DNA of 62,699 nt, the filler included, from Bonamia ostreae (lineage: Eukaryota), in assembly GCA_040357525.1 (NCBI GenBank). It is 23 parts of 23 records of this genome, joined end to end, with 100 filler letters (N's around TTAATTAATTAA, not from the genome) between each part and the next. Parts side by side here need not be neighbours in the genome. Positions count along the whole stretch, not along the records: positions 16,478 to 19,115 come from JBDODL010000742.1; 22 more parts are not named here. One strand, given 5' to 3'. How positions within the stretch are numbered: the stretch's first letter is position 1; every line of letters starts with the position of its first letter. This document shows, piece after piece, positions 1,847 through 57,986 of this stretch. The position numbers were made by a program, and so were the translations under genes. Under the pieces are notes generated by a model. The model ran no database searches. It was not told where the DNA came from and saw only the letters and a program-made list of their open reading frames with translations.

Positions 1847-2461
1847 ATGGCTTTAGATAAAAAAATGAAACAATACGAAATAATCGCTAGACGCCGTCCT
1901 TCCGAAAAAGTAACAAAACCGAAATCAACGAAAATGCAAATTTTTGCAGAAAACGAAGTTAGAGCACTTTCAAGATTTTTCTTTTTTCTACAGAAATATA
2001 ACCACATAAAACGCTCTTCCAGCGAAGTGCTTTCCATCAAAATCATCAAAGAAGAAAACCCCTTCGTTGCCAAAAACTACGGAATTTGGTTAGACTTTCT
2101 TTAAATTTAGCATTCGGGTACAAACTAGAACAAACATAGTCAACATGTACAAGGAATACAGAGCTTTGAGCAGATCTGAAGCGGTTGAACGCATGTATGA
2201 CGACATTGCCGCTAGACATAGAGCCAGAAAATCGTGCATCGAAATAATCAAAGTCGACGTCCTTCCAAACGAAAAATGCCTCAAACCGGAAACCACCACA
2301 TTCCATGTACTTTTAATATTCCCAAACATCAAAACGACAATTTTAATTTTAAAAAGGGCGACAAAGTTGAATTTCCACAAAGATATCGATTGAAAAGAAA
2401 TGCGTTCAAATCTAAAAGAAAGCTTTACAGCTATTCAAAACCAAATTACTTTGTATTTTAA
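1847..2461 (+). CDS. RPL18A: 60S ribosomal protein L18a (eL20)
   Basis: MKQYEIIARRRPS..MQIFAENEVRALSRF..KNYGI..NMYKEYR..AVERMYDDIAARHRAR. Introns 2089-2110 (22 nt) and 2307-2356 (50 nt) join three ORFs. Confidence 0.95.
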
Positions 2462-4146: not shown

Positions 4147-5186
4147 TAGACCAAAACCATTTCAAAATTGAGTTCGATGACGTTGCCAACCGTTTCCAGA
4201 TAGTCCCATTGCAGTTTCGTTTTTCATAATCTCTATTCAGAAAAAAGATAAAAATCAACGGGCAAAATTACGCCAACGCGGAGTGGCTGGTCGACGGAGA
4301 TATCATATCGATAAACTGCAAAAGCCATTCTCACGTGCTCAAGTTCTATCTCCCGAGTTCTGATCACGAAGAGAAAGCAAAGGGCGTTCCGGCGAACAAC
4401 ATCCTGTCAACCATTGTCAAGTCCAAGTACGAGATTCGGCGAAATATCGGCAATTTTTGTTGGACAGCGACGGAAGTCGCCGATCTAGTCGACGCGTTTA
4501 AAAGTTTCGGCATGTTTCGCCCTTCAAAATTGCGCGAAAAAGCTAAAATCGAAGAAAAATCTCTTTTGGAAGTGCAATTGTTTTCGATGGAATTAGTCAA
4601 TTTTTTGTACAGCAAATGCAAAAATTGGGCAGAAAAAAGTGTCGAAAGCGAACTTTTGTCTATTCTGGTAAAGAACGAATCGATAAGCGATATTTTGGAT
4701 AGAATTAAAACAGTTTTTGCTGAAAAGTTTGTAAAATTGGATGACTTGATCAAAATGAACGCGGAAAAATGTGCTGCAGATTTGGTCAAATCATTTGGAA
4801 GGACGCAGTTCATTAATGAACTTGTCGCGACTCAGCGGGAAAATGGGGGGAATTTTGAGACAATATTGAAAAAAAGCTACAAACAAATCAAAGAAAAGCC
4901 AACGAGAGAGTGGACTGTGCATGACGACAAGAAATTGATTTTGCGGCTGTATGAAGAAGGAGTGGACAATTACCGGTTTGTATCAAAGAACACACGGTTT
5001 GGAATGGAACAAACCGAAATCGATGAAAACAAGAGGAATCTGGCAAAGTTGGGGGTTATCCGAAAAGAGATCGAATCAACAAAAGATGGCGTAGTTTCAA
5101 CTTTGAAACTGGAAAATCGCTTTGATGCGATCTTTAATTTTTGGAGTGGTTGTGCAGTGCGTAAAAGCGAGATGGAAGATGATTAA
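4147..5186 (+). CDS. FHA-domain protein with CHD-type SANT/SLIDE-like C-terminus; 5' end unresolved across an internal gap
   Basis: Removing intron 4214-4240 gives HFKIEFDDVANRFQIVPLQKKIKINGQ..WLVDGDIISIN..LKFYLP (FHA-like). Then WTATEVADLVDAFKSFGMFR and WTVHDDKKLILRLYEEGVDNY, which resemble CHD DNA-binding helices. Confidence 0.55.
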
Positions 5187-10992: not shown

Positions 10993-11520
10993 AATAAATT
11001 TAACAAAAAAATATTTATTTTCAAAATAATAAAAACACCAAAGCTGATCCGTCCGCGGCAAAAGCTTCACTGCTCTGTCCCAGACGTTTCTGGCGTGGTT
11101 TGGAAAACGGTTTTTCATTTCGAATTCGGCGTATTTCAGCCAAATCCCGCGATTTTGATAGTCGACATTTAGCGCTCTCTCGTAAATGGATCGCACCCGT
11201 TCCCACTCTTTTTGCGATTCTTCCCATTTTGCGTAGCGGAGCCAGCAATTGATCGAATGTGGCTGTCGTCTGAGCTTCTGCTCAAACTCGACGCGGTTAC
11301 TGAGCTGATAAGCCTTTAGTTCCTCTTCGTTTGAAATGCGGTGGGATTGAGGCTTGAATTCGTCGACTCTGTGTTCGTAGGCTTCTCTGATGATCTGCTC
11401 TGCGGTGATCTGACGATCGGAAGGCGCTTTGTTCAGAACTTTTTCCTTTTTGAGGTTTCTGCCCGATTTGTGATAACTTGTTTTGGGGTCTGTTTCGACG
11501 TTGTCTTTGAATTGGTTCAT
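10993..11520 (-). CDS. CRNKL1: Crooked-neck/Clf1 splicing factor, 3'-partial
   Basis: KVLNKAPSDRQITAEQIIREA, HAT repeats WLRYAKWEESQKEWERVRSIYERAL, NHARNVWDRAVKLLPRTDQLW. Confidence 0.95.
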
Positions 11521-11745: not shown

Positions 11746-12605
11746 ATGGTGTTAGTAAAGATCGACGATGCGTATAAAAACGTTTCTAAAACAACCTTAA
11801 GCGTTACAGAGACGTAAAACTGGATCACCTCTTCAAGGCGCGCCCCAAAAAATTCAACCATGCTCGCCAGGCTCCCAAAAAAGACTTTTCGCGCGTAGTC
11901 AAATGGCCTAAATATATCGTCATCCAACGCAAAAAGGCCATTTTGAAGAAAAGGCTCAAAATTCCGCCGCCAGTGAACCAATTCAGCTTCACTTTGAATT
12001 CAAATCTAAGTTTCTTAAACACTATTTTCGCTCAATTTTGCTCTAAAATGACAAACATTCACAACAAAAATTTTTTCAAAAAATTTTAAGCAAAATCGCT
12101 TTATTCGCTCTTAAAAAAATACCGACCGGAGAGCACACACGAAAAGAAACTTCGCCTTAAAGAAGCCGCTCTGCAGAAAATCGAAGATAAGACGGAAAAA
12201 GCGCTCAAGCCTTCCGACAAACCTTACTTCGTCAAATATGGTCTGCGCCATGTGACGACTTTGGTCGAAAAGAAGAAAGCCAAACTAGTCGTGATCGCCG
12301 GAGACGTCGACCCGCTCGAAATGATCTTGTTCCTACCCACGCTTTGCCGCAAAATGGACGTTCCTTATTGCATCGTCCGCAGCAAATCGATGCTCGGCTC
12401 TTTTGTGCACCAGAAAAAAGTCACTTGTCTCGCTTTCACCGACGTCAGAAAGGGCAAAGACGAAGCGGTTTTCGAGCAATTGGTCAAATCGGTGCGCGCC
12501 AATTTCAACGAAGTCGAGTTCAAGAAATGGGGCGGAGGCGAAATGGGCAAAAAGTCGCGAGCGAAAGTTCTCAAGGAAAAAAAGTTCGGCGAGACTACGA
12601 AGTAG
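11746..12605 (+). CDS. RPL7A: 60S ribosomal protein L7a (eL8)
   Basis: [69 protein letters not shown]. Introns 11782-11801 (20 nt) and 12010-12090. Confidence 0.95.
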
Positions 12606-14857: not shown

Positions 14858-16051
14858 TTATGTTGGAACACTAAAACCACTTAAGAACAGTTCTTTAATG
14901 GCTTTAACTAAATGTTCGAGAAAGGGCACACTTTCTGAATTATATATCAAAATGGCGAAAAACAAAGTTGTGTAAGTCGATATTACCAGAACAGGCGCTG
15001 GAGAGCCTTTTCCGATTTTCCTTGTGTTCTCGAGCATCGTTTCGAGCGAATCCACTTTTTCGGTAATTTTAGTCGCCACAATTTTTCTTTATTTTGTTTA
15101 AAAAAACAATTTGGAAAAATTTTGTTCGAAAATGCGCATTTTCTCATTATCTTCCGTCTTCTCGATTTTCATCTGATTAAATTGTCTAATCAAGTTTTTC
15201 GCGTCGTTAAGATTATTTTGGAGTGTTTCCGCTTTCGTTTTGAAATTGTTAATTTGACTGACATATTTTGTAATTTTGGTTTTTTCGTTTTGCAAATCCG
15301 ATTGACGTCTTTTCGCATTTTCTTCGATCGATTTCTCTTTTTCCAAATTCATTTTTACCAAATTTTCGTTTTTTTGTTTTTCTTCAATTATCAATTTTTC
15401 CATTTTTTCTTGTTCAACCAACACGTCTTTATTGATTTTGTTCGCTTTGCTCAACATATTTTCATTTTCTACCAATTTTTCATTCAAATTGTTCATTACA
15501 GTTTCAGTTTCTGAAGCTTTTTCTTTGAGCTTTAACACTTCGTTATTTAATTGATCTTTATCTTTGATCATCGAATTACTGTCATTTAAAGCTTTCGCGA
15601 GGTTTTTAGACAAGCTTCCATGTTTTATCAACAAATCAGCATTTTTCTTTTTTAGTTCTTCAACTTCAGATTTGGCTTTATCTAATTTTTCCTGTTCGTT
15701 TTTGATTATTAACTTCTTTCCTTTTATGTCGTTTTCAAAATGCTTTTTTTGTTCGCTCATTTTTTCGACAAATTTCTCAAAAATTTCTTTTTGTTCTTTG
15801 AGTTCGTTCGCGATTTGCCGTTTTTCCTTCTGCAGATTGTTTCTGAGATTTCTGCCGTTTTTGATGATTTTTTCGAGTTCTGTTTCAGTTTCCTTGTTTT
15901 TGGCGAAGAGCAGTTCGACTTCGGTTTCTTTGGCTTTGAAAATTTCTTTCATGTTTCTGTTGTCTTTGAGTGCTTGCACCGCGATTTTTTCGTATCTATC
16001 GAACGCGATCAGACAGTAATTGGAGGCCATCGAGATGTTGAAAATGCTCAC
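14858..16051 (-). CDS. Long coiled-coil protein with C-terminal hydrophobic anchor (golgin-like architecture); true start upstream
   Basis: 317-aa K/E/N heptad ORF joined by 21-nt intron 15087-15107 to an exon containing VLVISTYTTLFFAILIY. Confidence 0.6.
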
Positions 16052-16746
16052 GTGTTTTCTGAAAATTACTCCTTTCAGGTTTCTGTACTTTTTTATTCCA
16101 TATTTAGTTCGTGAACATTTTTACTGTTTGCGGTTTAGTAAATTATTAAAAGAATTTTAGTTTGGCAAATGTTTAGCGTTGACGGTTATTCGACTAAATG
16201 TTGATTTTCCGATTTTTAAATAAAATTTGGACAGTTTTTAATACAAAATTTTTTGGTAAAATTTAAAATTTTATTTTGCTGAAATTTTGAAACGGTTTTT
16301 AATACAAAATTTTAGGTCGAATTTAAAATTTTATTTTGCTGAAATTTTGAAACACTTTTTAAAACAAAATTTTTTGGNNNNNNNNNNNNNNNNNNNNNNN
16401 NNNNNNNNNNNNNNNNNNNNNTTAATTAATTAANNNNNNNNNNNNNNNNNNNNNNNNNNNNNNNNNNNNNNNNNNNNTCTTGAAAAAGGGATTTTTGATT
16501 AAAGTCTGATTTAAAAGATTTCAATTATCTGGAAACCATTTTTACAACGGCTAATTATTAAAAAAAATTTAACGGCTAATTATTTAAGTCATTTTACAAA
16601 AAATTCAAAAGCCATTATTTGAAACAACGGCTAATTTAACCATTTTTATTCATAATCGACTATATCTAGTTGTTCACATAAAACTAAGATTACATCAAAA
16701 TTAAATTAAAACAAGTGCACTTGCCTAAACGCCATTAAACCAAAAA

Positions 16747-18049
16747 ATGCAAGCGGTAATTTTATCCGGTGGCTTTGGCACACGATTGAGACCACTGACA
16801 TTTTCTTGTCCCAAACCTCTCATTCCTTTATGCAATGTCCCCATTCTCGAACACCAAATATCCGCTTTGAGCATGGCCGGCGTCAAAAAAATTTTGCTCG
16901 CGATTTCTAACAACGCCTTTTCGTTCGAGAAATTGCAACTTTTCGTCGAAATGGCGCAAAGAAAATATCGAGTTAAAATTGTCTTGTCTGTTGAAGACGA
17001 GCCATTAGGAACTGGTTTTGTCTCTGATTTTCTATAGCTGGGCCGATCGCCTTGGCCGAAAGACATATAACAACAGAAAATTTTTTTGTGTTGAATAGCG
17101 ACATCATATGCGAATACCCGTTCGGCAAAATGTTCAGTTTCCATATCGAGAAAAAAGCGCTTGGAACTATTTATGTTTTCATGCTATTTTTCAAAATATT
17201 TTGGTAAATCTCATTTTTCGCGGAAAACGCGATTTGCTTTAATTCGTCTTTTTATTTTATTCAAATTCGTCTTTTTGTTTTATAGACGGTCACAAGCAAG
17301 TCTCCGTGGAAATATGGAGTTGTTTTGTTCGAAAAAGAATCGGGAAAAATTTTAAATTTTGAGGAGAAACCAAAAAGTTTGTTCTCAAAGTAATATCATT
17401 CAAAAAAAAGACAATATCGGGAACACAATAAATGGCGGCATATTCTGCTACCACAGAAAGATTTTTGATTACCTCAAAGTTTCAATTTTGACGAAAAAAG
17501 GTCACAAAGATGTCGATGGAACGCGAAGTTTTCCCAATTTTGGCACAAGAAAGCAAACTTTTCAGCTACGCCTCTGAAGAAAAGGAAACTTTCTGGATGG
17601 ACATTGGACAACCTAAAGATTACCTCGCCGGAACGTTTTAACAAATTATTTTAGAAATCTCTACATCGACCGTCTCGGCGGAAAACCGATCATCGTTTTT
17701 TAATTCGAAAACAGGGCCAAAACGTTATAATCGGAGAAGGCGCCAATATCGAAAATCACGTCGTAATAGGCGACAATTGTGTTATTGAAGAAGGAGTTGT
17801 TTTGCAGAATTGCGTTCTGTTTTCCGGGAGCATCATTAAAAAATCTTCGAGTGTCGCGGGGAGCATTATCGGGTGGGACTGTGTCGTGAGAGAAAATGTT
17901 TTTGAAAAAATATCGCAAAGTCGAAAATAAGCGATCTGAGCATTTTGGAGAACAACGTGATCGTTTTGGAGAAATCTGTTCTTGAAAAGGTGATTGTTTG
18001 TTCACACCGAAGCGTGGAGGGATTTGTGAGAGATAAAATAGTACTGTAA
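16747..18049 (+). CDS. GMPPB: Mannose-1-phosphate guanylyltransferase, 8 exons
   Basis: [51 protein letters not shown]-terminal hexapeptide repeats. Introns 17015-17037, 17175-17285, 17377-17410, 17479-17500, 17635-17654, 17695-17714, 17898-17920. Confidence 0.93.
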
Positions 18050-18052
18050 AAT

Positions 18053-19008
18053 TTATTTTTTCTGTAAAAGCTGTTTAAAGTACTCGATTTTTTCTCGTTC
18101 GGCTTGACGATGTTTTTTGACGCGTTCAAATTGTTCGATGTTTTTGCGTTCTTGGCGCACTCGTTTTCGATTCAACATGTTTTTATAGTCGTCTTTGCTG
18201 GAGCCCATTAGAAATTTGTCATTTAAAGCCGGCATTTGTTCGTCTCGGGTGCGATTTTTCTCTCTTTTTATTTTCTTTTTTTCGATCATCGCTTCTCGTG
18301 TTCCCTTTTCTGGGCGTGGCATGATGTTGTCTCTTAATTCTTCTCTTTCTTCTCTGAAGCGTTCTCGCTCTCTCCTTTGCAAAATGTTGTTCTCGAGGCG
18401 TTTATTGGCTCGTTCGGCTTCTGTTTGCATTGGAAGTTCGTTTGCGATTTTTGGGCGCTCTTTTCTTGTATTTTCTGTTTTCGTGTGGTAAGTCTCGGTG
18501 TCCACCCTGTCTTTTACTAAAATTTGACATTTGTGAAAATATTAAATTTAGAGTTCAATTAAAGCCATTCTTGACCGATTTGGCAAGAATTTACGACGTG
18601 TAAATTAATTTGGTCAATCCGATTTAACGAGTTAATAATAATGCACATTTACGATTTAAAACAACAAAAAATAGTTTAACGGTTCGCATAAAGTAAATTC
18701 CATTAAAGCTACAATATTTGTCCGAAATGGCAAAAACTTTTTTCTAGTGTGTTTTTGTCGCGAGTGGAAAGATCGAAGTTCCATTGGTGGCGAGTGGCCG
18801 GAACTTCGACGGCGGAGCTGTTTATTCCTTCGTAATATTTCTGCGAAAGTTTGCCTTTGTTCCACTTTTTCGCGAACCGTTTGAACAACTTTTTCAACTT
18901 TTTAGATTTTTGCTCGTCAAAATACATTCCTTTCTGCTCGAAAAGCCATACGCGAAACTCTGTGCTTTTCTTGTAAAAGTCTTCCTTCGAAATTTTCAAC
19001 GAATCCAT
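18053..19008 (-). CDS. SCI1 (style cell-cycle inhibitor 1)-like conserved protein, at least 2 exons
   Basis: ISKEDFYKKSTEFRVWL..KKLFKRFAKKWNKGKLSQKYYEGI; C-terminal part IMPRPEKGTREAMIEKKK..LNDKFLMG. Confidence 0.65.
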
Positions 19009-19280: not shown

Positions 19281-19566
19281 TCAATCGTTTTTACTTTGCT
19301 CATCGACTTCTTTTTTGGCCAGAGAAAGAAAGATAAATCTATCCAAAGGCAATTTGTCCTTTTTGTCAGATTTCACGGTTCCCCACGGATTCACAGAAAA
19401 CTTCCACCAGTTCCTCAAATAACTGTAAGGGTCGTACATGACTTTTTTGTGAATAAACTCTTCCAAAGGACTATAAGCTTCGGACTCCCCGTTTTTTCGT
19501 TTTATAGGACATTTTATTCTGTTTTGGAAACTTCAAATTTTAAGTTTAAAACATGTCGGTTTCCAT
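19281..19566 (-). CDS. Small hypothetical protein
   Basis: ORF ..KVMYDPYSYLRNWWKFSVNPWG.. with an upstream ATG in TTTAATG context; exon junction not resolved. Confidence 0.35.
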
Positions 19567-22299: not shown

Positions 22300-23495
22300 T
22301 CTTACACTTTTTTGGGACGTCTTTAAATCAGAAGAGACAATGTTGTTGAATTTTGAGCAGTTCCATCTAAAATTTAAAAATTTGATGATGCGTCTTAGGT
22401 CACCGCTGGACTAATTTACGAAGTGTATAATATCACCTCGATAAGTGACGTCTAATACGATCTAGTTGATATCTGGAGCGAATTGGTAGGAAATAGATCA
22501 ATAAGCAAGAATGGATCTAACATGAGATTTGTACAAATGCAGTTTTGCTTTATGACGGATTATTGTCTGTTTTGCTTCCCAAGTAGCTTATTATTCCCAT
22601 AACTTTTCTGCTTTTTGGTATGATGTTGTCGAAATGATGTTTGAAAGAGGCTGTTCTGTGATATTTTACTTCAAGATATTTCCATTCCTTACTAGGAAGA
22701 TTCTTTTTTGTTAAATAATACAGAAAATTCGCAGTTCTAAACATTTGAATTTATACAAAATTATTTGGAGTTGATAGATTGCTACTGTGCACAGGTACTG
22801 TGTTCGAAACTGTATGAAAAATCATCTGCGTATCCAGTAACTGAGTTGTAGACGCCAAAAAGTGAACTGGAGTAGATGCTGCTTTGCAGCAAACCTTTGG
22901 GACAGTTTAACTTTTTTGAATTATTACCTCTAATCTTGATTCCACAAGAGCGATTAGTTATGAAGCTGCATAAATATTTTTTGATGTAAGACTCTATCTT
23001 GAATGCGTTGATCATCTTCTTTAGTTTATCTTTATTGAATTGATTGAGTCGTAAGTTTTCGAGAGATCCACAAAGCATACTGCTAATATTTACTCTGTGT
23101 TTTAGATTTGAAGATTTTGGATGGTAATTTTACTAATGTAGTACTGGAGCCTTTTGTGAATCCGAATAGATTATTTGGTATCAAGTCTAGAAATTTATTG
23201 GATTTGGCAATTCTGTTCAATACAATTTTTTCTAGATTTTTTGCCGCTACTGATAACATAGCAAGGGATCTAAAGTCATTTATTTCGTTTGCGGATATAT
23301 TAATTACTTTTTTCCAACCATTCGGGGTGGCCCTGTTTGAAAGGAGGACGTTAAAGATTTTGCATAAGATTCTGCGCGTAGTAGGAGCGCCTTTTTTATC
23401 ATCTCGGGCCCAGAGGATTTGTTGATTTTCATGTCTTCGGCAAATACTAAGACTTTGTCTATTAGTATATCTTTGTAATTTTGGCTAGTGAACAT
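22300..23495 (-). pseudogene. Decayed non-LTR (LINE) reverse transcriptase
   Basis: KSSGPEMI, KGLLQSSIYSSSLF..YADD, KYLEV..SFKHH and LYKSHVRSILAY* in several frames, with stops. Confidence 0.8.
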
Positions 23496-24730: not shown

Positions 24731-27220
24731 AGTCATTATTAAAATCAAAAAACACAAACGGTCCACAAACTCGCTACAGAATTTTGAACGAAAACGGGGA
24801 TTTTTATGACAGCGTTTGCATCGACGTCTCGATTTTAGGGAAAAACAGAATAGTTGTTTTGGGAAAAGAAACGAAAAATAGACAAAATAAATTATTCCTT
24901 TTTATAAAAAACGGCAAAAACGAGTTAAAAAGGAAAATCGAATTGAATTTTGATAAAACGGAGCGCATTTTTTTCGCTGATAAAAAAGTTCTTTTGAATG
25001 GCGAAGGAAAGCTAATTTTATTCGATCCTTTTAAAAAAGGCGTTGTGGCTGATTGCGCTGTTGATGTTTTCTGACAATAAAATTTTAATTTGCTAATTTT
25101 AAAAAAATCGCTTTGGCAATTTTAAAGGAAAAAGTGACAAAAGTAGTTTGGAATATCAACAAAAAGTTCTTTGCCGCGATAACGAAAAACAAAATTTATT
25201 TCATCGACGAAAATCTCAAAATTATTGGAAAATCTGTCGAAGACGACAATTTTGTTATCAATAATGGCATTTGGGACGATGCTCTTGGAACTTTTTTATA
25301 CACTATCAAAAACATTCTCAAATATTCGTTAAAAAATTTTATTAAAAATGACAAAAAAATCGATAAAAAAATAGCAAATTTTATAAAAAATGACTAAATA
25401 ATCGACATTAAATAGCAAATTTTATAAAAAATGACAAAAAATAGCAAATTTTATAAAAAAATGACAAAAAATAGCAAATTTTATAAAAAAAAATAACAAA
25501 AATAATCGACATTAAATAGCAAATTTTATTTAAAAAAAATAACAAAAATAATCGACAAAAAATAGCAAATTTTATAAAAATCAATAACAAAAAAAGTTTA
25601 TTAAACGGCGAAAACGGCAGAATCCACACATTCGAACAACCTCAACAATTGATAAAAATCATCGAAAGCGGCAAAAACAACACAATTCAGATTTTGACAA
25701 TGGACTATTCCCGCAACTTTTACATGTTTCCGCTGAACCGCTCAGAATACGAATTCAAAAAAGCAGTCGAACTCGACAATATCGAAGAAGTTAAAAAAAT
25801 TCTCGATTTTTCAAAATTCAGCGGACAAAAAATGGTCGATTTTTTGCTGCAGAAAAAGTATTCGAAAGCCGCTTTGCGGTTCGGCCGAGACGAAAACGTC
25901 CAATTTGGTCTCGCGTTGGATTGCGGCGATCTTGATTTTGCGATGAAATGTGCGCAAAAAATCAACGACAAATCAGTTTGGTTGAAACTCGGAGAAAGAG
26001 CTGTGGAACTTGGCTTCTTTGACGTTTTCTTGCATTTTTTGAAAATAAATTTTCGAATCGCCAAATTTTATAAAAATAAGATCGCAGAAAAGGCTTTAAT
26101 TTTATCGGAAAATTTTTTCAAATTGTCTTTTCTTTATTTGGTCGGAGACCAAAAAGAAAAAATGGAAAAACTTTTGCAATTCGCAGAAAAAACTGAAAAC
26201 AAAGCTCTCTTTTTGCAAATTTCGCTATTTTTGAATAGCGAAAATTCGTTAATAAAGCTTCTAAATAATTCCGGATTTTCTGCTCTCGCATATGCGGCAA
26301 TTAAAGCTTATAATTTGAATGGAGAAAAATTTGATATTAAAATTCCGGCAGAAGTTCGTAACAGAATCGACAGAATTCGTTTCGGAGAAGGAATTAAAAA
26401 CTGTTTTTCGGACAAAAATGGCGATTTGGATAAATGGCCTTCAAAAAATGTTAACAAAATTTTAAAAAATTGCTAATTTATTGCAAAAATAGAAAACTGT
26501 GAAAAATGTCAATAGCGAAATGGAAAAGATTCTCAAATCGATTGAAACCAAAACCGAAAATTTGGCGAAAAACGAAAAAATGGTTGAAAACGAGTTCAAT
26601 GATTTTCAAGATTGGATGGCTGTTTTTATTTAATCGCAAAATTTTGGCAAATCCGAAAAGCCAATTCAACAAAATTTGACAAAAAGGGACTAGAAAAACT
26701 GGAACAAGCAGCGGAAAAAGTTCAAAGAAAAGAACAGTCAAAATTGCCCGCCGAAAACCAAAATTCGGTCAACAAAAATTCACAAAATTTGGACAAAAAA
26801 TTGCCGAAAATTGGCAAAAAAGAATGTTTGGAATTTGGTCAGAAATGGATGGAAAACTCGCCTTCAGCGATCGACCTCATTTCCGCACAAAGATTCGATT
26901 TGGCCACAGAGCGATTGTACAGAAAATTTGGAGTCGTCGACCCGAAACCGCTCCAAAATTTGTTCTTGGAAATAGCGCAAAGCACTTCGATGAAAATGTG
27001 TTTGTTGCCGGATTTCGCGCCGATTCGAGTCGGCGTTTCGACGAGGAAAAAAAGTTTTTTGAAGCCGTTGCACGGATTCAACGTGGAGAAAGTGGAGAGG
27101 GAATTTGATTTGGCTCTGAAAAAGGTGACAGCGAGGAAGTTGGAAGAGGCAATGGCGGATTTTAAGAGGATTTTGTTGATTTTGTGTGTTGTTGAAATGA
27201 GTTGTGACGCCGAGATCAAT
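24731..27220 (+). CDS. COPA: Coatomer subunit alpha, internal fragment, multi-exon
   Basis: QFGLALDCGDLDFA..WLKLGERA..NFFKLSFLYLV; WMENSPSAIDLISAQRFDLATERLYRKFGVVDPKPL. Confidence 0.88.
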
Positions 27221-31517: not shown

Positions 31518-32769
31518 TTAATTTTTCTCTTTCCGGTACAATTGGTAGTAGCTGAATATCAAGTTCACCGTCATGAAAATACCGGTTCCAGACATCAAGG
31601 CTCCTTCATTTATTTAGGTTAATCGTTTTCCATAAAATTCGCTATTTGCAAATTTGCAAAACAAACTCCGAAAGTGCTTTTAAAAAATGGTTCATCTAAC
31701 CTGTTATTTGCGACAAAACAGTCAAAATGCCGACCGCCACGCCGCCCAATATCGTGGACGGGAACACATTCTTCTCTATCGTCGGCAAAGTCTCCTTTCT
31801 GCTTTTCTTGTAAAATTGGATTCCCTGTGAATCGAGCATCCGGGCTTGCGACTTCGGAGAGCTGCCGGACGCCTCCATCCACAGCATCGAGAAAACCCCG
31901 CACAGCAGCGCTATCAAGAAAACGTGCAAGAGAAAGTGCATCGGGTCGCCGAAAATGCTGTGGATCGAGCGGACGGGGCGAAGATAGTACGCCAACCCTT
32001 TATCAGTCAATGCACACAACCTCCGACTGGCGAGTACTGACCCCCCACTGCTTCCCAACGGCCGATCAGGCGAACAAGAAAGTTGTGCGAATAGCGGCGG
32101 TACAGGATTTTCGAGAACATGTGGAAGTTGGCGACGATCGTCGTCTGGAAGATAACCGGGAAAGTCGACATCGGAATCAGTTTGATCGTAAAATTGCCGA
32201 TCACTCCGCGCACGCCTCTTTTCGAGAGGGGGAGATCAAATTTGAAGTCCTCCAAGTAGATGACGATCAAGCACACGGCGCAAGTCGATAGCAGATTGCA
32301 GATGTTCGGAAAATCTTCTCTCGTGGCAGCCTGGATTTAACGAGAAAACCGAGAAAAGTCTTTTCAGCGATCGGTCGGAACGCAATCCGACGTGCAGAAC
32401 TTCAACGACCGCGCCTTCGAATTGAATTCCTTTCGCGGTGTGGAGAGTGGTGGGAGAAAAACAATTCCAAAAAATGCTTTCGCAGACGTTTGTGGCAATA
32501 AAAAGAGAAATCCCGGAACCGAGCCCGTATCCCTTTTCGAGCATTTCGTCTAGCAACAAGACGACGATGCCGGCTAAACAGAGCTGCGAAGCGATGATAA
32601 CGATGTTGCCGATTCCGAGTTGATCGAAACTGCCGTATAAGCCGGAGCGAATCAAAATGGCGGATTCGAAGAAAATTGCGAACATTGCGAAGATTTTTTG
32701 GGCGGATAGAAAGACTTTTTTGTGGTAAGGATCGCTTTTGTCGAACTTGATGAAACTTGATTTTGTCAA
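31518..32769 (-). CDS. SEC61A: Sec61 alpha translocon subunit (divergent), 5'-partial
   Basis: LLLDEMLEKGYGLGSGISLFIATNVCESIFW..FSPTT..FEGA; PVGGLAYYL; SGSSPK; SGTGI. Introns 32331-32349, 31998-32020, 31604-31700. Confidence 0.92.
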
Positions 32770-32888
32770 AATGGTTTATCGGAAGAAANNNNNNNNNNNN
32801 NNNNNNNNNNNNNNNNNNNNNNNNNNNNNNNNTTAATTAATTAANNNNNNNNNNNNNNNNNNNNNNNNNNNNNNNNNNNNNNNNNNNN

Positions 32889-33249: not shown

Positions 33250-33715
33250 ATTTAATAAAAAGCAATTTTCAGTTAATTTGGAAGATATTTTTAAATATTT
33301 AAATTAAAATTCTTAAAATGGAATTATCTGTTCTAATTTGCTATTATTCATTACAATTAGAAAATAAAAGATTCTTACAAACAGAAGACATCAAAAATGA
33401 TGAACTTAAAGTACTTCTTAACAAAGGTAGACCGCTTCCAGAAAAAAATAGTTTTGAAATATTAAAAATATCTATAAAATCGATGCGTTTTTTAAATATC
33501 TAAAAATACTTCTTTTTAAATGATTTATATATTTTTTGTTGCACAACAATAAATCTCATCTATCATTAGAAAAAATTTTATTGTTAATGTTTGAATGGTC
33601 TATAAACAGCCCCTTACAAGCCATATCAAGAGACTTAATTATAGATAAAAACATTCTTGTGAGATGTAGCAGTATTTAAATGTGAAAACGATACGAAAAA
33701 ATTGATGGAAAACGC

Positions 33716-34024
33716 TTGGTGTTAGAAATCGATGAATCTGTAACCAGTAGAAGAAAGCATAACAGTGGAAGATTGATAAAGACACGGTGGATGGTTGATG
33801 TTAAATGCTATTCTACAAAAAATTTTCATCGAAAAGTAGAATCTAGAAATGCTGAAGTTATTCGAGACATCATCGAAAGAAGAATCGAAAAGGGTTCTAT
33901 TATTATATCTGATTGCTGGAGAGCCTATAAAAATCTTACTGATTTTGGGATATGTCATTTAGTCTTAAATTTTACTGATTTTTTTGGGAAAAGATTTAAT
34001 TTTAATTTGGAAAAAAGGTTGTGA
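33716..34024 (+). mobile_element. Merlin/IS1595(ISXO2)-family transposase remnant
   Basis: VLEIDES..RRKHNSGRL..W..IEKGSIIISDCWRAYKNL..H..NF; truncated. Confidence 0.85.
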
Positions 34025-35789: not shown

Positions 35790-38244
35790 TTAATCATCTT
35801 CTCCCAATTCTACTGATTGGAAGAATTCTTTTAATTCGTTACTGATTTCATCGATAACATATCGTTTTATGTGGCCAACTTCGGAAGAATTGTTCCACTT
35901 CAATAACAAAAATCTACTTTTCGAATGTAAACTTAATTGCAAAATCGCCGCAAATCTGTTTGAAAGCAAATCAAAAATTTTCTTCAAAGGAGAAAAAGCA
36001 AAAGAAGAATTATGTTCGATGTCATGGAGTGCAGAACAGTTTTTTATCGCATCCAATGAATTCAATCGAAATCTAACATCAAAGTGCGAAGGTTCCGATT
36101 TGAATAAAGTCTTTAATGATTAACGAATTGAACCAACAGATTTAATTTTGTGGCGTCCTTTGATAAGAATCGTTCAGCGAAATCGAGAGAAGCCTTGCTG
36201 ATTGATTTTAGTCTTACGAAATCATATTTATTCATTTTTTGTGTGTAAAAATGCTCTCCCGCATAATCTGCGATATGGAAACAGAGAAACCGACCATCTT
36301 GATCAGTGGACTTGACCTTCTTCTTTAGTTCATCTATGGAGTGGATGATTGAATCTTCTATAATGAGCAAAGGAAGCTTGCGCCATTCATGAGAATGGAG
36401 AACCTCTAGAAAACAAAAGAAGGCTCTTTGCGGCGAAAAGTACTGCATTTCTTTGTGTTTTGATTTTTTGTAGCAGTATAGTACAAGTAGTTCAACAAAA
36501 GTGTCTTCCAAGTTAAATCCATGCATCGAAATCCACAACTTTGAAACAGCGACTGCTTTTTCAAAACTTTTCAAGCCGTCCGAATGTCTTTCGATAAAAC
36601 TGTGACACCGCTCTAACTGCCCGTCTTCAGATTCGTCCGACTGGAAAATCGCACTTATTCGAAACACAGCCGATCCGGTCCACACGTCAACGCCTTCTGG
36701 AACTCTTAGAACACTTTTTTCTGTTACTTTAAGACATTTCACTAAGTTTAGATAAATCGCTTTCAGCAATATAAAAGAATTTTCAGAGTGGGCAAATGGT
36801 GTCTCGAATCCATCTGAGAATTTCGTTTTCATGAAAACCAATTGAACTGGAATTGGTTCGTAGAGCCAAACGTCGTTTTTGATGTGATTCTCAAAATAAG
36901 TGTGGTCGACTCTTCGCACTTGAGATTAGTAAGTGAACAAGGATGAAGCAAATCAACTCTGTGGATTTTGTCCCTAAAATTATCGTCGGACTTTAAATGG
37001 CTGACAAGTTTTCGAAAGGATCTTTTTGCCCTGAGGGACGTAGACTTATGTTCAGAGACCAAATTATCAAAATTTTCAAATGGCATTTTGACTGCACATT
37101 TTGTCGTCGAAACGGCAAATCTAATTATTCGCTCAAAAATGCTGCGCCCTCCGCAGTCCAATTTGCGCAAGTCCACTGCCTCGACGATCGAGCCGTCTTT
37201 GTAGCGTCTCAAAGTCAAATATAAAACCGCACTGCGGAATGTTTCCCCCAGAGATCCCTGAATCGTCTGCTTTTGGCCTTCTCTTCGATAGAAGGTCCTT
37301 TTTCGATAAAGACGTGGGAAAGGTTGTTAAGACCTATTCCAATCATTAAAATCTTTCGAAAATTATCGAGGTCGAAGGAAAGACGTTCGGTTCTATTCCA
37401 CATTCTTTCGTAAATCCGGTTTATCAGATCGTTTAAAATCCGCCGGGAAAAATAATCTCGAAACCTAATTTTCACTATTTGGTCGAATTGACAAATCAAT
37501 GGCTCTTTCTTGAAGATTCCGTCGATAATGTTCTTGCGCGCGATATAGTCTCTATCAGAATCGATGAACCGCAAAATATCATTGCACCTGGTTATAAACT
37601 CGCGGTATTTTGAAGCGGAAACGGTCGCTGCGATGTTGAAGGCGCCTAAAGATAGTGATTAAAACTGAAGGGAGACAAGATCACGATCCCGTTTTCTTCG
37701 AGAAAATCAGCTGGATCTACTTTACTGCGTCCGTTTTCTCCGTCCTTGGGAAAAAGGATGAGACCTTGATCACGGGACGAAAGATCGTTGGAAGCCATGA
37801 ATTGCAATAGTTTTAAGAACACGTTGAACGCTGAACTTATTCTTCCTATTTTTTTGGAATAATAGAGGTGCGCCAAGACCATCGATAAGTGGAAAAAGCT
37901 GATTCCGTCTAGTTTGTCGTTTAAGTTTTGGGAGAACAGCCACTTTTTACAAAGAAAAGCAGCAGTTAATAAGTTCTTATTCTCTGCAAACGCGTCAAAA
38001 CGATATTGGAAGTGCCTGAAAATGTTCTTGTCTTCTTGGATTATGGCACAATGTTCGAAAACATTTTCGGTCTATTACGAAAATTTTTTAATTGGAATTT
38101 GTTTGGAGTTTAGGGCTAAAACCCCGACCTGAGACAATATCGTCTAGCGCAGATATTTGGGCTCAAAGTTTGGGTGTAACGTCACTCAAATTTGGAGTTC
38201 GAATGAAGCTACGTCTCCGTCTTTGCATAGTTAGTAAACAACAG
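35790..38244 (-). CDS. NOL6: Nrap/UTP22 nucleolar protein, 5'-partial, multi-exon
   Basis: KGPS..RFRDLWGKHSAVRRYKDGSIVEAV; SPQRAFFCFLEVLHSHEWRKLPL. Introns 37646-37665, 37208-37227, 36919-36938, 36111-36133. Confidence 0.88.
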
Positions 38245-43789: not shown

Positions 43790-45001
43790 TTTGAGAAATC
43801 GAGACATTTTTCAAATATTCAAGAGCTTTCCCGTTTTCGGGCTTTACCGGATTTGGCTCGACCGCTTTTTCGTTTATTATTTTTATTTCTTTCGATTTAA
43901 TTATCAATTTCTTTTTCCTCGGAAGACTTTCTCGGACCGATTCACTATTCTCCATCTTTTTTAAAATTTGTCAGAAACAAGAGAAAACCAAATTTTTGAC
44001 GTCGACAGCTTTTTTGTGATACCGATCGAGAAGATGTCTGAACTTGAAAATTCTAATCGTTTCAGCCATTTCTCCCCAATATTCAAAATCCAAAACTTCG
44101 CCGCTTTCACCATTTTTCGCGTTTTCTATTTTTGTCTTTGTTTCTATTTCCAATTCGGTCAATTCGCTGTTAAAATTTTTGGAATTTTTGAAATTTTAAA
44201 TTTTTTTATTTTTGAAATTATTAAATTTTTTAATTTTTTGAAACGTCAAATTTTTGTTTTTTAGCAATTTTTTCAATTCTTTTTGGTTAAAATTGTTTTT
44301 GGACATGAAAAATTTTACAGTTTTTTCAATTATTTCCCAAAATTCTTTGTTTTCGTCCAATTCTAAAATTTCTTCGACTTCGTTTTTTATCTGTTTTAGC
44401 GTTTCCGGATTCCATTCGTTTTCTATTGTTTTGAACGGTTCGTCCAAAAACAATATTTTTTCTAGACGTTTCCTCAAATCTTTTATTTTGCAAAATTGAA
44501 GAAACGTTTGTTTTTTCTTCGTTTGGAAATCATTTCGACCAATTTGTCGATTTCCAAATGTTTCAACAGAAAATCGACGGAATTGAGCGCGAAAAGGACA
44601 TTTTTAAAAATAGTGTCGAAAGTGTTTTCGCGGCCATCTTTAATGCGGATTAAGGCTCGTTCTCGGACTTGTTCTTTGTGAAACTGTTCTTCTTTTTGGT
44701 TTAGGATGCCATAATTTTCTCTTTCCAGTTGTTTTTGGATGTCTTCTCTCATTTGGTCCATCGCCTCTTTTTCCTGTTGTCGCCTTTTTCTCAGAACTTT
44801 GACTTCAGAGATCTCTTTTTCGAGACTTTTCTCTCTTTTTCTCATTTTTTGTTTGACCATTTTTTTGAGCTCTTTTCCTTTTAGTTTCGGATTTTTCTTT
44901 TTCCACTTTTTCTTCCAAACGAATGGCGTTGATAAGTCGGTGTCGCCGAACCGGTTGTTTTTCAAATCGTGGCCGAAATACAGTTTTCTATCGGAATCCA
45001 T
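43790..45001 (-). CDS. CACTIN: Cactin (spliceosome C* factor), 3'-partial
   Basis: NNRFGDTDLSTPFVWKKK; KEEQFHKEQVRERALIRIKDGR. Confidence 0.88.
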
Positions 45002-45047
45002 TTTCCAATATATTTTAAGCCAAAGTAAAAGCACTGCGGCTTTTTTA

Positions 45048-46407
45048 ATGCAGTCTTTTCAGACACCCGAAACGCTATCAGCTTTGATACCAAGACGAAT
45101 TAAATTTGTTGCGCCGTCCGCCGTTAAACAGAGCGCGTTCACTAAAAGCAGTAAAAGCTTCTCGGATATTAATGTTTTACGATATAACAGTACTTTAGAA
45201 ATTGGATGACGAATGGAATTGGAAAAAGCGGTTTGGGATAAGATGCGGATTTCAGAATGCGGGCGCAACATGTTACCTCAACAGCGTGTTGCAGTGCCTC
45301 GTTTATACTGCGCCTTTATATAATTATCTCTATTCGAGAAAACACGAAAAAATTTGCCGAAGAAAAGGCTTTTGTTGGATGTGCTATATGTCTTCTGTTT
45401 CTTTTCATGTCCAAAAATCCAGTTTGTTGTTTCCAAAGCGGATTCTGCAGAACATCCGCGAGCTCAACAAGTTTTTCCGTGTTTCCGAGGAACAAGACGC
45501 GCACGAACTTTTTCTCTGTCTTTTAGACAAACTCTCATTAACTTCTAGTGCAACGACCAACTCGTTTTATTTTAAATTCGTTGTTACATTTTTAAGCTTG
45601 GCACGATATATTAGATTCGTAATGTCCGTAAATCCGCTTAATGTCATGTCGTTTTTTGTCGACTGTAGAAACATTTTCAGTTTGATTTGCGATAACCAAA
45701 CATTTACAATTATTATATTGTTATCGTTAATAACGATGCTCAAAGCATTATCAGTTTTGCAAATTAAACAATGCCCAAAAACTGAAATATATTTGATATC
45801 GTTGCACAATCTGCTCCACACTCAATTCAACGAAAACACACAAAACCAAATTAAAGCTCTTTTAAAAACATTATTATATCGAAAATAACTAAAATAAAAC
45901 TGCTAAAAGAAACAAACGAAAATTAGACCAAATAGATAAAAACTCTGTAATTTCCAAATTGTTTGCGGGTGAATTTAAGTCGGGGATTCTCTGCAAAACT
46001 TGCAAACAAATATCGAGATCGACCGAAAATTTCAACGATCTCAGTTTAGACATTAACAAAAGTGAATCTGTTGAAGAAGCCATTAAACATTATTTTAAAA
46101 TACTCAAATTATCCGAAGAAAACAAATATTTTTGCGAAAAGTTTTGACATTTTTACTAAAAGTTGCAAAAAGAAAGTATTCGCAAAGAAAAAAACTATTA
46201 TTTCAAGACCGCCAAACATACTCGTTCTCCATTTAAAGAGATTTTCCGTCAACGGAAATTCTGCCAGTTTTTTCAAAAACACAAAAAATGTGTCTTTAAA
46301 TAAATCCATTTCCATTGAAAAGTACACAGCGAAATCAATTAAAAACTCTGATGTTTTTAATAAATTAACCTCAAATTTTATATTAAAGTTTAATTAGATT
46401 TTTGTAC
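45048..46407 (+). CDS. Ubiquitin-specific protease (USP36/42-like), 3'-partial
   Basis: Cys box GFQNAGATCYLNSVLQCL, QDAHE, LFAG..CKTC, PNILVLHLKRF. Introns 45174-45198 and 45564-45909. Confidence 0.88.
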
Positions 46408-46994: not shown

Positions 46995-47590
46995 TTAATT
47001 TTCATCATCAAGCGATTTGCCAATCTTATTAAGTTTTCTAGACAAAATCTTTCTTTGAATCAATCCCATTTTTTTCGTACTCCTTTCATTCTCAAAATCA
47101 ATCGAATCCATGTTCAACAAAGTGCCTATAATTAAACTTTTGTTCGTCTCGTAGACCTCGCCGTTCAAAATGAATTCGTCCAAAACGTTGTACGCCTTCT
47201 TATTTTTTATGGAAACGGATTTGACGTTGTAGATAATATCGAGCTCGCAGACATTTCCAAAATAGTTGTCGAGCAGTTCGACGAAAAAATGGATCGTTTC
47301 CAGCGTCGAAAGTTCGTTGTCCTCGTAATCTGTGATGCAGACAAAGTAAAGAGACGCGTATCGTTTGTAAACGACTCTCAGATCTCGGTAGTCTACAAAA
47401 TTGCATCTGTTTAAAATAGCCTTTTAAACAGTTTGTCGTCTCTTGATAAGACGAGATTGTTGACTTCCTTTATGAAGCGTCTTTTGTCTTTAGAAGACAA
47501 TTTTGGGTCGTACCACCTTTTTAACCTTATTCTTCCTGCTCTACTAGTTAAGTAAATACACTGAATCTAATATTTAAAGCTCAAAACCAT
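46995..47590 (-). CDS. AP1S: AP-1 complex sigma subunit
   Basis: SRAGRIRLKRWY, VYKRYASLYF, DNELSTLETIH, YFGNVCELDIIYN, AYNVLDE. Introns 47567-47587, 47407-47429, 47196-47216. Confidence 0.88.
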
Positions 47591-47784
47591 TTCGAACTTT
47601 AGGTTGTGTTGGTATAGTAGATTTTAGCTTTTTTATTTGAAATGTTTTCATTCAAATTATTAATTTGGTTACGAGTAATTAATGTCTCGTTTAGATGCTC
47701 AAATTAATGTTTAAAAAATTGGAGAAGCGTAAATTAATGTTTAGAATGTCTAAAATTTAGCAATATCTAAAATTTTAGCATTAA

Positions 47785-50580: not shown

Positions 50581-50652
50581 GCTCCCGTAGCTTAGAGGTA
50601 GAGCGTCCCACTCGTAATGGGGAGGTCGTGGGTTCAATTCCCGCCGGGAGCT
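50581..50652 (+). tRNA. tRNA-Thr(CGT)
   Basis: GCTCCCG/CGGGAGC acceptor stem, TCCCA-CTCGTAA-TGGGG anticodon arm, GGTTCAATTCC, downstream T-run. Confidence 0.95.
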
Positions 50653-50744: not shown

Positions 50745-51843
50745 ATGACAACTTACTGGATATCGAACCCTCGTCAATACTGCAGAGACTGCAAAACGTA
50801 CATTGATTCCAAACCTGAAAACGTCAGAAAACACGAAGCCGGCGCAAAACATCAGAAAGCAATGAAAAAAAGGCGAAACATGCTTCGAGACCAAAATTAT
50901 GAACGTTCCGCTACAAAACATGGCTTTGAAAAACAAATGGAACTGGTCGAAAAAGCTGCTCGCGATTCATATAAAAAGGATTCGTCTTATTTTTCTATGT
51001 TTGATGACCAGTCGCGTTTCGAACAACAGGACAGATTTCTAGAAATGGCCAATTTTTCAAAATGTTTTTTTGCCAAATTTCGTTTTTTGAAAAATTAGTT
51101 CCGCCGATTCCCAAAAACGAAGACAATTTTCAAAAATTTTCGAAGGGATTTAAACCTCCTCCGGGGATGTCTTCTGCGACAACACCGACTTGGCTCTACA
51201 AAGACGAAGAGGGACGCGTTCAGGGGCCTTGGAAACTGTCAGAAATGATTTTATGGAACGCGTCTGGATTCTTCGACAAAGAAATGGAAGTTCGAAACAT
51301 TTCTAAAAGAGAAATGGGATGGCTTCCAATTAATTGTTGGGCGGAAATCGTCGGAGAAGAAAATGTACAACAAATCCCTAAACAAAATGTCGGAACAAAC
51401 TCGAAACACAAAAATTTTCCAAATGGCGACGACACTAAAATTTCCGACAAAAATGACAGCTTTAAAAACACGGAAAATGTAAACGAGTCAACGGGAATGG
51501 GCGAATGGACGCCAGTTCCAAGTACTCTAAAACCGGAAAATTCCGACAATAAAACTAAAATGGCAAATTCAAAAAGCGAAAAATCAAAAGTTAAAAAAAT
51601 GGATATTCTGAAAAATGATCCGAAGAGCGAAATGTCTCCAAAAATTTTGGAAAATAATGAAAAGAACAAAATGTTGAATTTTGTTAGAAAATCGCGTCGT
51701 TTTGAAGAGCGAATCGAAGATAGCGATGAAGATTTAAAAGTTTTAGAAAACGATTCTGTTGCGTCGAAAATGGACCGAAACGATGTGTCTTCCGAAAAAA
51801 CGCAGAAAACACAAAAACTTAAAGTTCGACGTAAAAAGCGAAA
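50745..51843 (+). CDS. WBP4/FBP21-like U1-type zinc-finger protein with a GYF domain
   Basis: MTTYWISNPRQYCRDCKTYI..HEAGAKH; WLYKDEEGRVQGPW..MILWNASGFF; GMGEWTPV. Intron 51064-51098. Confidence 0.8.
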
Positions 51844-54407: not shown

Positions 54408-54704
54408 CTGATTTTAAATAAACTGAAATTTGGCAAAAACGCTTAATAAAAATATTCTTAACAAAAAATAACAATAATTTTTAACAATTTTACCAAAATT
54501 TTATCAAAAAATAACAAAAACAATTTTACGAAAATTTTAACAAAAAATAACAATAATTTTNNNNNNNNNNNNNNNNNNNNNNNNNNNNNNNNNNNNNNNN
54601 NNNNTTAATTAATTAANNNNNNNNNNNNNNNNNNNNNNNNNNNNNNNNNNNNNNNNNNNNTTAAAAACAATTTAAAAATATTAAAAAAATGACAAAAAAT
54701 TAAG

Positions 54705-55293
54705 AACAAAAGAAACGTATATTTTAACAAAATAAAAAATGACTGGACAGACAGCAAATTTTTTTCAGGGAAAAACCGCCTGATTCAATTCGCTCTAGGG
54801 AAAACAACCAAAAGAGAAAAAAGAAAGAATTTACACAAATTTGGAAAAGTTTCAAATTTAAGATTTAGACAATTAAAAACGAATGCGTTTTGTTGATGAC
54901 AAATAAATCTGTCGAAGAAGTCAAAAAATATTTCAATTTTGTCCGAGACGCCGAATATGCAAAATCTGGCACTATCTCGACTAAAGTCTTCAAAAATTTT
55001 AAAATTTTAAGACAGTGGAATTGAAATCTGGATTATTAGAAAATATGCCATTTTCGATGGAAACAAGATTGAAAGAGCTAAAACTTCCGATAAAACTTGA
55101 TAACAGACAAATTTTTCTATTAGGCGATGTCACTGTTTGTTCAAAAGGCGAAATGTTGACGTCAAATCAATGCGCCGTATTGGTAAATTTTGGTAGATAA
55201 TTTTGACAGAAAGCTTTTGATTTTAAAATTTCGGCGTTTTCTTGTAAAGTTTACAGTTATTGGGACAACGAAAAATTTTATTTGGAACAATAA
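54705..55293 (+). CDS. MRT4: Ribosome assembly factor Mrt4, 5'-partial
   Basis: DSKFFSGKNRLIQFALG, PFSMETRLKELKLP, VCSKGEMLTSNQCAVL. Introns 54849-54868, 54986-55011, 55183-55209. Confidence 0.88.
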
Positions 55294-55931: not shown

Positions 55932-56003
55932 TCCCCTATGGTGTAATGGTTAACATGTTCGGCTCTCACTCGGATGACCCGGGTTCGATCCCCGGTAGGG
56001 GAA
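55932..56003 (+). tRNA. tRNA-Glu(CTC)
   Basis: TCCCCTA/TAGGGGA acceptor stem, TTCGG-CTCTCAC-TCGGA anticodon arm, GGTTCGATCCC. Confidence 0.95.
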
Positions 56004-57893: not shown

Positions 57894-57986
57894 TAGGTTT
57901 AGCTGGAATTGTTCGAGATTAGAGAGTGGTGATAGAAATGGCCGCGATTTGAGGTTTTCTGGCGATTTAAATTGGAAAATAATAAT

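Follow-up and report, generated by a model that had tools for sequence, protein, structure and literature searches.

The stretch of DNA analysed here, hereafter the window, comprises 62,699 bases from Bonamia ostreae, a haplosporidian (Ascetosporea, Rhizaria) that parasitizes the flat oyster, and consists of 23 contigs of ~2.6 kb each, arranged longest first and joined by spacers (N44, a 12-base sequence and N44) across which no feature is valid. Our subject is the very short introns of the genes on these contigs, foremost those of the gene for mannose-1-phosphate guanylyltransferase (GMPPB), together with the sequences at their splice sites. The B. ostreae genome paper reports a 12.24-Mb assembly in 9705 scaffolds with an N50 of 1417 bp, 33.3% G+C and 5253 gene models, and in its available text says of introns only that they are "canonical introns", with a mean of 2 per mRNA (PMC11069148); this and the other published sources are cited throughout from the portions of their text that were available. 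The gene models come from funannotate (train/predict/update), run with published transcriptome reads of B. ostreae (PMC11069148), and since these reads were fed to the annotation, both the gene models and the isoforms are transcript-informed.

The GMPPB gene (Table 1) carries the Pfam domains NTP_transferase, Hexapep and GMPPB_C on its exons, and its exon 1 is 100% identical to the B. ostreae NCBI protein MHBO_002228. The spliced mapping of the deposited isoform P0121 contains exactly 7 GT..AG introns, and all seven begin with GTTT, as a first-pass annotation of this DNA had claimed. Residues 1-349 of the spliced product align to residues 1-348 of the 348-amino-acid (aa) homologue P0002 at 54% identity, with three gaps that, as judged without a residue-by-residue comparison, apparently lie away from the exon junctions; the C-terminal exon, 3' of intron 7, also matches P0002. 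Three isoforms are deposited at the locus, of 349 (P0121), 317 (P0001) and 229 aa (P0122); P0001 retains intron 7 and meets a premature stop at 17928-17930, and P0122 begins at an internal Met at 17130. These isoforms may reflect common intron retention or may be by-products of the annotation pipeline. Stop-free antisense open reading frames (ORFs) of 152 aa (16725-17183, minus strand) and 124 aa (17700-18074, minus strand), which have no family match, face the GMPPB exons, and in naive ORF-based gene calling the antisense ORFs beat the true exons. In a metagenome scan for GMPPB relatives, the 15 loci found were no more than 24-30% identical, and none was near enough to come from a haplosporidian.

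With the introns of NOL6, cactin, AP-1 sigma and the ribosomal protein eL20 added, the supported set amounts to 16 introns in 5 genes (GMPPB 7, NOL6 4, cactin 3, AP-1 sigma 1, eL20 1), 14 of them annotated and placed by exact protein mapping and 2 fixed by homologues of solved structure. The deposited NOL6/Nrap protein P0123 (669 aa) maps exactly with 4 introns, the flanking exons bearing Nrap Pfam domains, and the deposited cactin protein P0124 (355 aa) maps at 99% identity with 3 introns, all of which begin with GTTT. Against chain 5it7_SS, the two eL20 exons align up to residue 74 and from residue 76 on, with a single split codon in between; against 1w63_Q, the AP-1 sigma exons align up to residue 44 (with one ORF residue beyond) and, past one split codon, from residue 47 on. 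Removal of the introns restores the homologous protein, end to end in GMPPB and continuously to the residue in eL20 and AP-1 sigma.

One may ask whether such short segments are introns at all, or whether faulty assembly, frameshifts or over-fitting of the gene models simulate them, given that parasite coverage was low and the assembly highly fragmented (N50 1417 bp; PMC11069148), and that a motif-blind gene model which we applied to the window (codon log-odds, GT..AG boundaries only, flat length prior) readily invents introns. We consider this explanation extremely improbable: all 16 supported introns have exact GT..AG ends, their removal gives residue-exact continuity with homologues, a shared four-base start is not expected of random indels, and deposited isoforms differ by retention of a single intron (GMPPB intron 7). 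Furthermore, retention of any of the 14 annotated introns leads to a premature stop, which in 11 cases is an in-frame stop within the intron itself.

The supported introns measure 20 (five introns), 22 (two), 23 (four), 26, 33, 34, 78 and 111 nucleotides (nt), so that 12/16 fall within 19-29 nt and the distribution has its mode at 20-23 nt with a long tail. At the donor, T occupies position +3 in 16/16 introns, as compared with 41.6% T in intron interiors (p = 8e-7), and position +4 in 13/16 (p = 1.5e-3, same background); every intron starts with GTT, and 13/16 start with GTTT, against 20.5% of the 4957 GT sites counted in the 21 Bonamia-like contigs, from which 54661-57275 and 57376-59987 were excluded (p = 3e-7). 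GTRAG was found in 0/16 and G at +5 in 2/16. Among the 14 annotated introns T is present at +5 in 8, at +6 in 4 and at +7 in 8, and exon position -1 displays no preference for G (4/14). Minor (U12-type) introns have donors of the RTATCCTT type, and GTATCC or ATATCC was found in none of the 16.

Since intron interiors consist of 41.6% T and 38.2% A, and T stands at +5 and at +7 in only 8/14 introns each, hardly more than background, GTTT could be viewed as a mere by-product of T-rich introns, with no recognised signal behind it. This we regard as very improbable, because T at +3 and +4 far exceeds interior T, GTTT at intron starts exceeds its share of all GT sites, and the GTTT excess recurs in predictions of the motif-blind model outside annotated genes. 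Among introns of up to 40 nt that model predicted 25, of which 16 start with GTTT and 22 with GTT; the 17 predictions outside annotated genes include 10 with GTTT and 14 with GTT (p = 6e-4 against 20.5%).

The first-pass annotation had described micro-introns with GTTT donors, no GTRAG and almost no G at +5 from a tally of 38 introns, and the exact protein mappings, the homologue continuity and the uniform GT..AG ends bear out both their reality and their donor in an independently supported set. Compared by proportion, not item by item, the 16 and the 38 are close: GTTT in 13/16 and 29/38, GTT in 16/16 and 34/38, lengths of 19-29 nt in 12/16 and 30/38, G at +5 in 2/16 and 4/38, and AAG, TAG, CAG and GAG acceptors in 7, 5, 3 and 1 against 19, 13, 5 and 1. 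The comparison named beforehand as able to overturn this description, namely that of T at +3 and +4 with the intronic background, was run and T was found in excess. As a further trait of the supported set, 10/16 lengths equal 2 modulo 3 (20, 23 and 26 nt) and 3/16 are multiples of three, each with in-frame stops; this bias could stem from selection for stops upon retention or from detection, and we make no claim on it because annotation and frame-based detection both under-detect introns whose length is a multiple of three.

At the 3' end, the 16 acceptors comprise AAG (7), TAG (5), CAG (3) and GAG (1), with a pyrimidine at -3 in 8/16. A at -3 (7/16) is no commoner than in intron interiors (38%, p = 0.41), and the acceptor is thus a relaxed NAG and not a re-specified AAG, so that the AAG acceptor proposed in the first-pass annotation is not supported; at -4, A is present in 11/16 (p = 0.013). 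Its proposal that the introns have no polypyrimidine tract is sustained, pyrimidines making up 52.8% of positions -12 to -4 and 54.7% of the interiors; upstream of the acceptor, AAG-ending introns are A-rich (52% A) and TAG-ending ones T-rich (58% T). A branch-like motif, YTRAY, occurs in 11/14 annotated introns where shuffles predict 5.4 (p = 0.0016), and the first AG 3' of it is the acceptor in 11/11; it lies 7-16 nt from the 3' end in nine short introns, where its A is 7-15 nt from that end, and 43 and 54 nt from it in two long ones. In three 20-nt introns YTRAY begins at +3 to +5, overlapping the GTTT donor in two and abutting it in the third. The notion of a rewired splice code therefore stands for the donor, which departs from GTRAGT, but not evidently for the rest, as the use of YTRAY and then the first AG in 11/14 annotated introns (5/17 in a less certain set, described below) may be ordinary. 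TTAAAY, which has one extra A, was observed post hoc in many introns lacking YTRAY, for example at 12010-12090 (plus strand) and at 15087-15107, 32331-32349, 47407-47429 and 19519-19552 (all minus strand), and may represent a relaxed branch motif.

Taking these observations together, we assign a probability of about 0.8 to the reading that we are dealing with true spliceosomal introns of the major GT..AG type, close to minimal size, whose donor has drifted to GUUU(U) and whose acceptor is NAG. The U1-complementary 5' consensus GTRAGT is not matched, and the departure concerns the consensus, not the GT-AG class. The 5' splice site would have drifted to GUUU(U), with U invariant at +3 and nearly so at +4 and G almost absent at +5, and the 3' end would be any NAG after A/U-rich sequence, without a pyrimidine tract. 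An ordinary major-type spliceosome is expected to act on these minimal introns, because of the GT..AG ends, the branch-like motif, the use of the first AG and the presence in the window of CRNKL1 (HAT repeats), cactin (Cactin_mid) and a WBP4-like protein (zf-U1), genes which the first-pass annotation had correctly named. With so little sequence between branch and AG, U2AF-type reading of a tract would be dispensable, and pairing with the U6 ACAGA box may likewise gain from U at +3 and +4.

How the donor would be read is less certain; the first-pass annotation had suggested altered U1/U6 pairing or definition of introns by length. To a standard U1 5' end, GUUU would offer no pairing partners beyond G1 and U2. 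The likeliest solution, to which we nevertheless give somewhat less than even odds, is a U1 whose A-rich 5' end has co-evolved with GUUUU, as in Entamoeba, where donors are GUUUGU(U) and a co-evolved U1 (5'-AACAAAC-3') restores full pairing (bioRxiv 10.1101/2022.06.08.495308); by analogy, that system makes altered pairing plausible in Bonamia. Both are parasites with A/U-rich introns in which donor positions +3 and +4 are U and a branch motif, or in Bonamia a branch-like one, is near the 3' site. Entamoeba, however, has retained +5 G (96.9-98.5% GUUUGN), followed by U at +6 and +7 (bioRxiv 10.1101/2022.06.08.495308), whereas in Bonamia +5 is G in 2/16 and mostly U; Entamoeba has few introns, 20-nt ones not being reported in the available text, whereas Bonamia GMPPB has 7 in ~1 kb of coding sequence; and the Entamoeba U1 is known, whereas for Bonamia the comparison is drawn from intron sequences.

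Recognition of the 5' site independently of U1 pairing is a less likely solution; U1 would be lost, or would be bypassed for want of space, the branch site following within 6-12 nt, and U6/U5, length and A/U content would serve instead. Such a system is suggested by the mikrocytids, which have introns of 16-17 nt and whose identified splicing machinery comprises, of the small nuclear RNAs (snRNAs), only U2, U4 and U6, together with 17-19 proteins of the spliceosome (PMC10245619); in Bonamia, the start of YTRAY at +3 to +5, against the donor, in three 20-nt introns and the absence of a G preference at exon -1 agree with it, as does the raised potential for U6 ACAGA pairing given by U at +3 and +4 (bioRxiv 10.1101/2022.06.08.495308). 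Bonamia, however, is said to lack the extreme reduction of mikrocytids, and the enrichment of splicing-gene loss has been placed on the ancestor of paramyxids and mikrocytids, not on Haplosporidia (PMC11069148). Moreover, introns of 33-111 nt share their donor with the tiny ones, so that length alone cannot define introns, and U1 may have been missed in mikrocytids for lack of sensitivity, U5 having likewise gone unreported (PMC10245619). A standard U1 helped by proteins takes up the remaining probability.

An idea that we hold as doubtful is that in the 20-nt introns donor and branch form one composite element, read by an A-rich U1 or by no U1: G-U-U-U-U-A-A-Y could be read both as a GUUU donor and as a YURAY branch, with a lariat loop of ~7 nt. 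In view of the 16-17 nt introns of mikrocytids, a minimal code of this kind could be common to Ascetosporea and need not have arisen independently in its lineages.

Several points weigh against the reading of drifted-donor spliceosomal introns set out above, or against parts of it. The sample is small, 16 introns in 5 genes representing ~0.5% of the 12.24-Mb assembly, and transcript support is deduced from how the annotation was made and from the isoforms on deposit. YTRAY is not enriched among 17 less certain introns, hand-picked from model output and frame enumeration (5 against 6.7 expected, p = 0.88), so the branch signal in these sequences is suggestive and not established; no headline statistic rests on this set. 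The motif-blind model is unspecific, as wrong boundary dinucleotides gave 38-54 introns where GT-AG gave 49, and the means over 255 decoy pairs were 15.2 and 21.0 introns where GT-AG gave 19 and 25. As decoys yield similar counts, only the donor make-up of the model output is taken as evidence, and the GTTT excess qualifies because contamination can only dilute it. Thecamonas, Mamiellales and 69 yeasts retain a standard U1 despite atypical donors (bioRxiv 10.1101/2022.06.08.495308), and the mikrocytid snRNAs identified, as cited above, do not include U1 (PMC10245619). A search with Rfam models revealed no snRNA in the window, whether cut off at the gathering threshold or relaxed to E <= 10 (only two transfer RNAs and weak chance matches otherwise), and with no U1, U2 or U6 gene present there every statement on snRNA pairing made here is inferred.

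Other known systems share parts of this architecture. The mikrocytids Mikrocytos mackini and Paramikrocytos canceri belong with Bonamia to Ascetosporea and have extremely short introns of conserved sequence, but of their 224 introns 217 measure 16 nt and 7 measure 17 nt, and their spliceosome is reduced to 17-19 proteins (PMC10245619). It is possible that the GTTT start is common to Ascetosporea, mikrocytids included. With introns of 20-111 nt, Bonamia falls outside the size-constrained class known from mikrocytids, heterotrich ciliates and the nucleomorph, in which all intron lengths differ by no more than 1-4 nt.

Ciliates and the chlorarachniophyte nucleomorph, the latter of green-algal origin in a rhizarian host, are unrelated to Haplosporidia, and their donors are of the GTA type, unlike the GTTT of Bonamia. 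Splicing in Saccharomyces uses a branch motif and the first downstream AG, with no clear pyrimidine tract, and Bonamia resembles it in lacking a tract and may do so in its branch-like motif and use of the first AG, one intron containing TACTAAT. Yeast introns, in contrast, are few and of ~400 bp (PMC10245619); their donors are GUAUGU, and the yeast U1 is standard (bioRxiv 10.1101/2022.06.08.495308). The tiny introns of Paramecium (~25 nt), Stentor (15-16 nt) and the nucleomorph (18-21 nt), with sizes as given in PMC10245619 and PMC5014332, are like those of Bonamia in forming a narrow size class near the minimum, in their GT..AG ends and in producing stops on retention.

Bonamia thus combines tiny introns with donors carrying U at +3 and +4, and differs from the known systems in having no +5 G preference, a broad size range and a high intron density. 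The introns themselves are already in the public annotation, and the combination of tiny size and GTTT is undescribed in the available text of the genome paper (PMC11069148). Nor did literature searches aimed at the introns of Bonamia, haplosporidians and mikrocytids and at atypical donors bring up, in the text available (including PMC11069148, PMC9329632, PMC9998036 and PMC13746701), any account of how long introns are or which splice consensus they follow in Bonamia or other haplosporidians, that of PMC9329632 containing 0 mentions of intron or splicing; older papers on haplosporidian actin genes may bear on the matter. Six lineages are described in which the preferred 5' splice site has shifted from U1 complementarity, with direct evidence of co-evolution between splicing RNA and introns in Entamoeba and a relative (bioRxiv 10.1101/2022.06.08.495308), and the mikrocytid introns are the shortest known outside ciliates (PMC10245619). 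Bonamia would add a lineage with a doubly atypical donor, high intron density and near-minimal introns, and makes it testable whether the U1 5' end tracks the donor and how close donor and branch site can lie. In practical terms, default minimum intron sizes in gene finders and read mappers will mis-model genes of this aquaculture pathogen, as exemplified by the GMPPB isoform that ends early with intron 7 kept, and the summary given in the genome paper ("canonical introns", mean 2 per mRNA; PMC11069148) may understate the introns of Bonamia.

Table 1. Coordinates of the GMPPB gene, supported introns, spliceosome-related genes and candidate introns, in positions of the window.
Feature	Position	Strand	Length (nt)	Ends	Basis and remarks
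GMPPB coding region, 8 exons	16747..18049	+			Exact spliced mapping of isoform P0121, 349 aa
GMPPB intron 1	17015..17037	+	23	GTTTTG..TAG	In-frame stop inside if retained
GMPPB intron 2	17175..17285	+	111	GTTTTC..TAG	
GMPPB intron 3	17377..17410	+	34	GTTTGT..AAG	
GMPPB intron 4	17479..17500	+	22	GTTTCA..AAG	
GMPPB intron 5	17635..17654	+	20	GTTTTA..TAG	
GMPPB intron 6	17695..17714	+	20	GTTTTT..CAG	
GMPPB intron 7	17898..17920	+	23	GTTTTT..AAG	Kept in isoform P0001
NOL6 intron 1	37646..37665	-	20	GTTTTA..TAG	
NOL6 intron 2	37208..37227	-	20	GTTTTA..GAG	
NOL6 intron 3	36919..36938	-	20	GTTCAC..AAG	TACTAAT branch-like heptamer inside
NOL6 intron 4	36111..36133	-	23	GTTCAA..AAG	
Cactin gene, partial at contig end	43800..45001	-			Cactin_mid E = 3.8e-8 (domain 44486-45058) and P0124 mapping
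Cactin intron 1	44480..44505	-	26	GTTTCT..AAG	
Cactin intron 2	44167..44244	-	78	GTTTCA..CAG	
Cactin intron 3	43956..43988	-	33	GTTTTC..AAG	
AP-1 sigma intron	47407..47429	-	23	GTTTAA..CAG	Homologue 1w63_Q and motif-blind model
eL20 intron	2089..2110	+	22	GTTAGA..TAG	Homologue 5it7_SS; not GTTT
CRNKL1/Syf1-type HAT-repeat exon, running off contig end	10993..11520	-			PF23233 E = 4e-13, HAT E = 2.7e-9
WBP4-like N-terminal exon, U1-type zinc finger	50745..51062	+			PF06220 zf-U1
Candidate eL8 (L7Ae) intron	12010..12090	+	81	GTTTCT..AAG	Frame enumeration, motif-blind model, L7Ae Pfam downstream
Candidate COPA intron	25066..25127	+	62	GTTTTC..AAG	One of 10 in-phase GT..AG solutions; COPA Pfam on downstream ORFs
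Candidate WBP4-like intron, between zf-U1 and GYF exons	51064..51098	+	35	GTTTTT..TAG	17-nt alternative 51082-51098
Candidate Sec61 alpha intron	32331..32349	-	19	GTTTTC..CAG	One of 40 in-phase solutions between SecY-positive ORFs
Candidate intron joining 340-aa and 76-aa ORFs	15087..15107	-	21	GTTTTT..AAG	Neither exon with family match

Among the genes related to the spliceosome, the WBP4-like exon has as its best solved match residues 1-81 of human WBP4 (E = 1.3e-6), U1-C being matched at E = 0.15 only. In place of the WW domains of human WBP4, the protein (50745-51841, plus strand) has a GYF domain (PF02213, E = 9e-11) after its zinc finger; GYF and WW domains alike bind proline-rich peptides.

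Candidate introns beyond the supported set were sought by two routes. The motif-blind model recovered only 3/7 GMPPB introns. An enumeration by frame restoration, in which every in-phase segment joining neighbouring ORFs was considered and boundary dinucleotides and 4-mers were ranked, gave no splice signal: over 131-740 ORF junctions with ~490 solutions each, GT-AG ranked 168/256, AT-rich boundaries came out on top, and long antisense ORFs outcompeted true exons. A phase-decoy test of the same enumeration likewise gave nothing. The candidate eL8 intron removes the sole in-frame stop between two ORFs of the same frame. For COPA, a homologue search with the exon, confined to longer proteins, yielded no match at E <= 1e-30. 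Four predictions lying inside continuous ORFs, two of them within Pfam-aligned regions, were dropped (12241-12272, 11075-11108, 51787-51805 and 23333-23349), and the predicted intron 4182-4203 was dropped from the less certain set.

In the Sec61 alpha (SecY) gene (31699-32775, minus strand), three overlapping ORFs are present, the sequence between them is richer in G+C than other introns, and the frame solutions number 40 and 62. The first intron of AP-1 sigma (47561-47597, minus strand) is ambiguous: it may be a 37-nt GTTCGA..CAG intron after an exon of 18 codons, or the ATG may be followed directly by a 27-nt GTTTTG..CAG intron, and alignment with the homologue speaks for a very short N-terminus.

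The two contigs excluded from the background count look foreign. That at 54661-57275 carries a collagen triple-helix ORF (56442-56975) and a RhoGEF, and that at 57376-59987 a VWA domain (59348-59686), a Tc5 transposase HTH and 46% G+C; they may originate from the host oyster or another animal. The transfer RNA genes found with Rfam lie at 50581-50652 (plus strand, 67.7 bits) and 55932-56003 (plus strand, 59.1 bits), the second on a foreign-looking contig. Finally, an ISXO2-like DDE transposase domain (PF12762, E = 2e-6) was identified in the ORF at 33686-34021 (plus strand), on a contig of 27% G+C.

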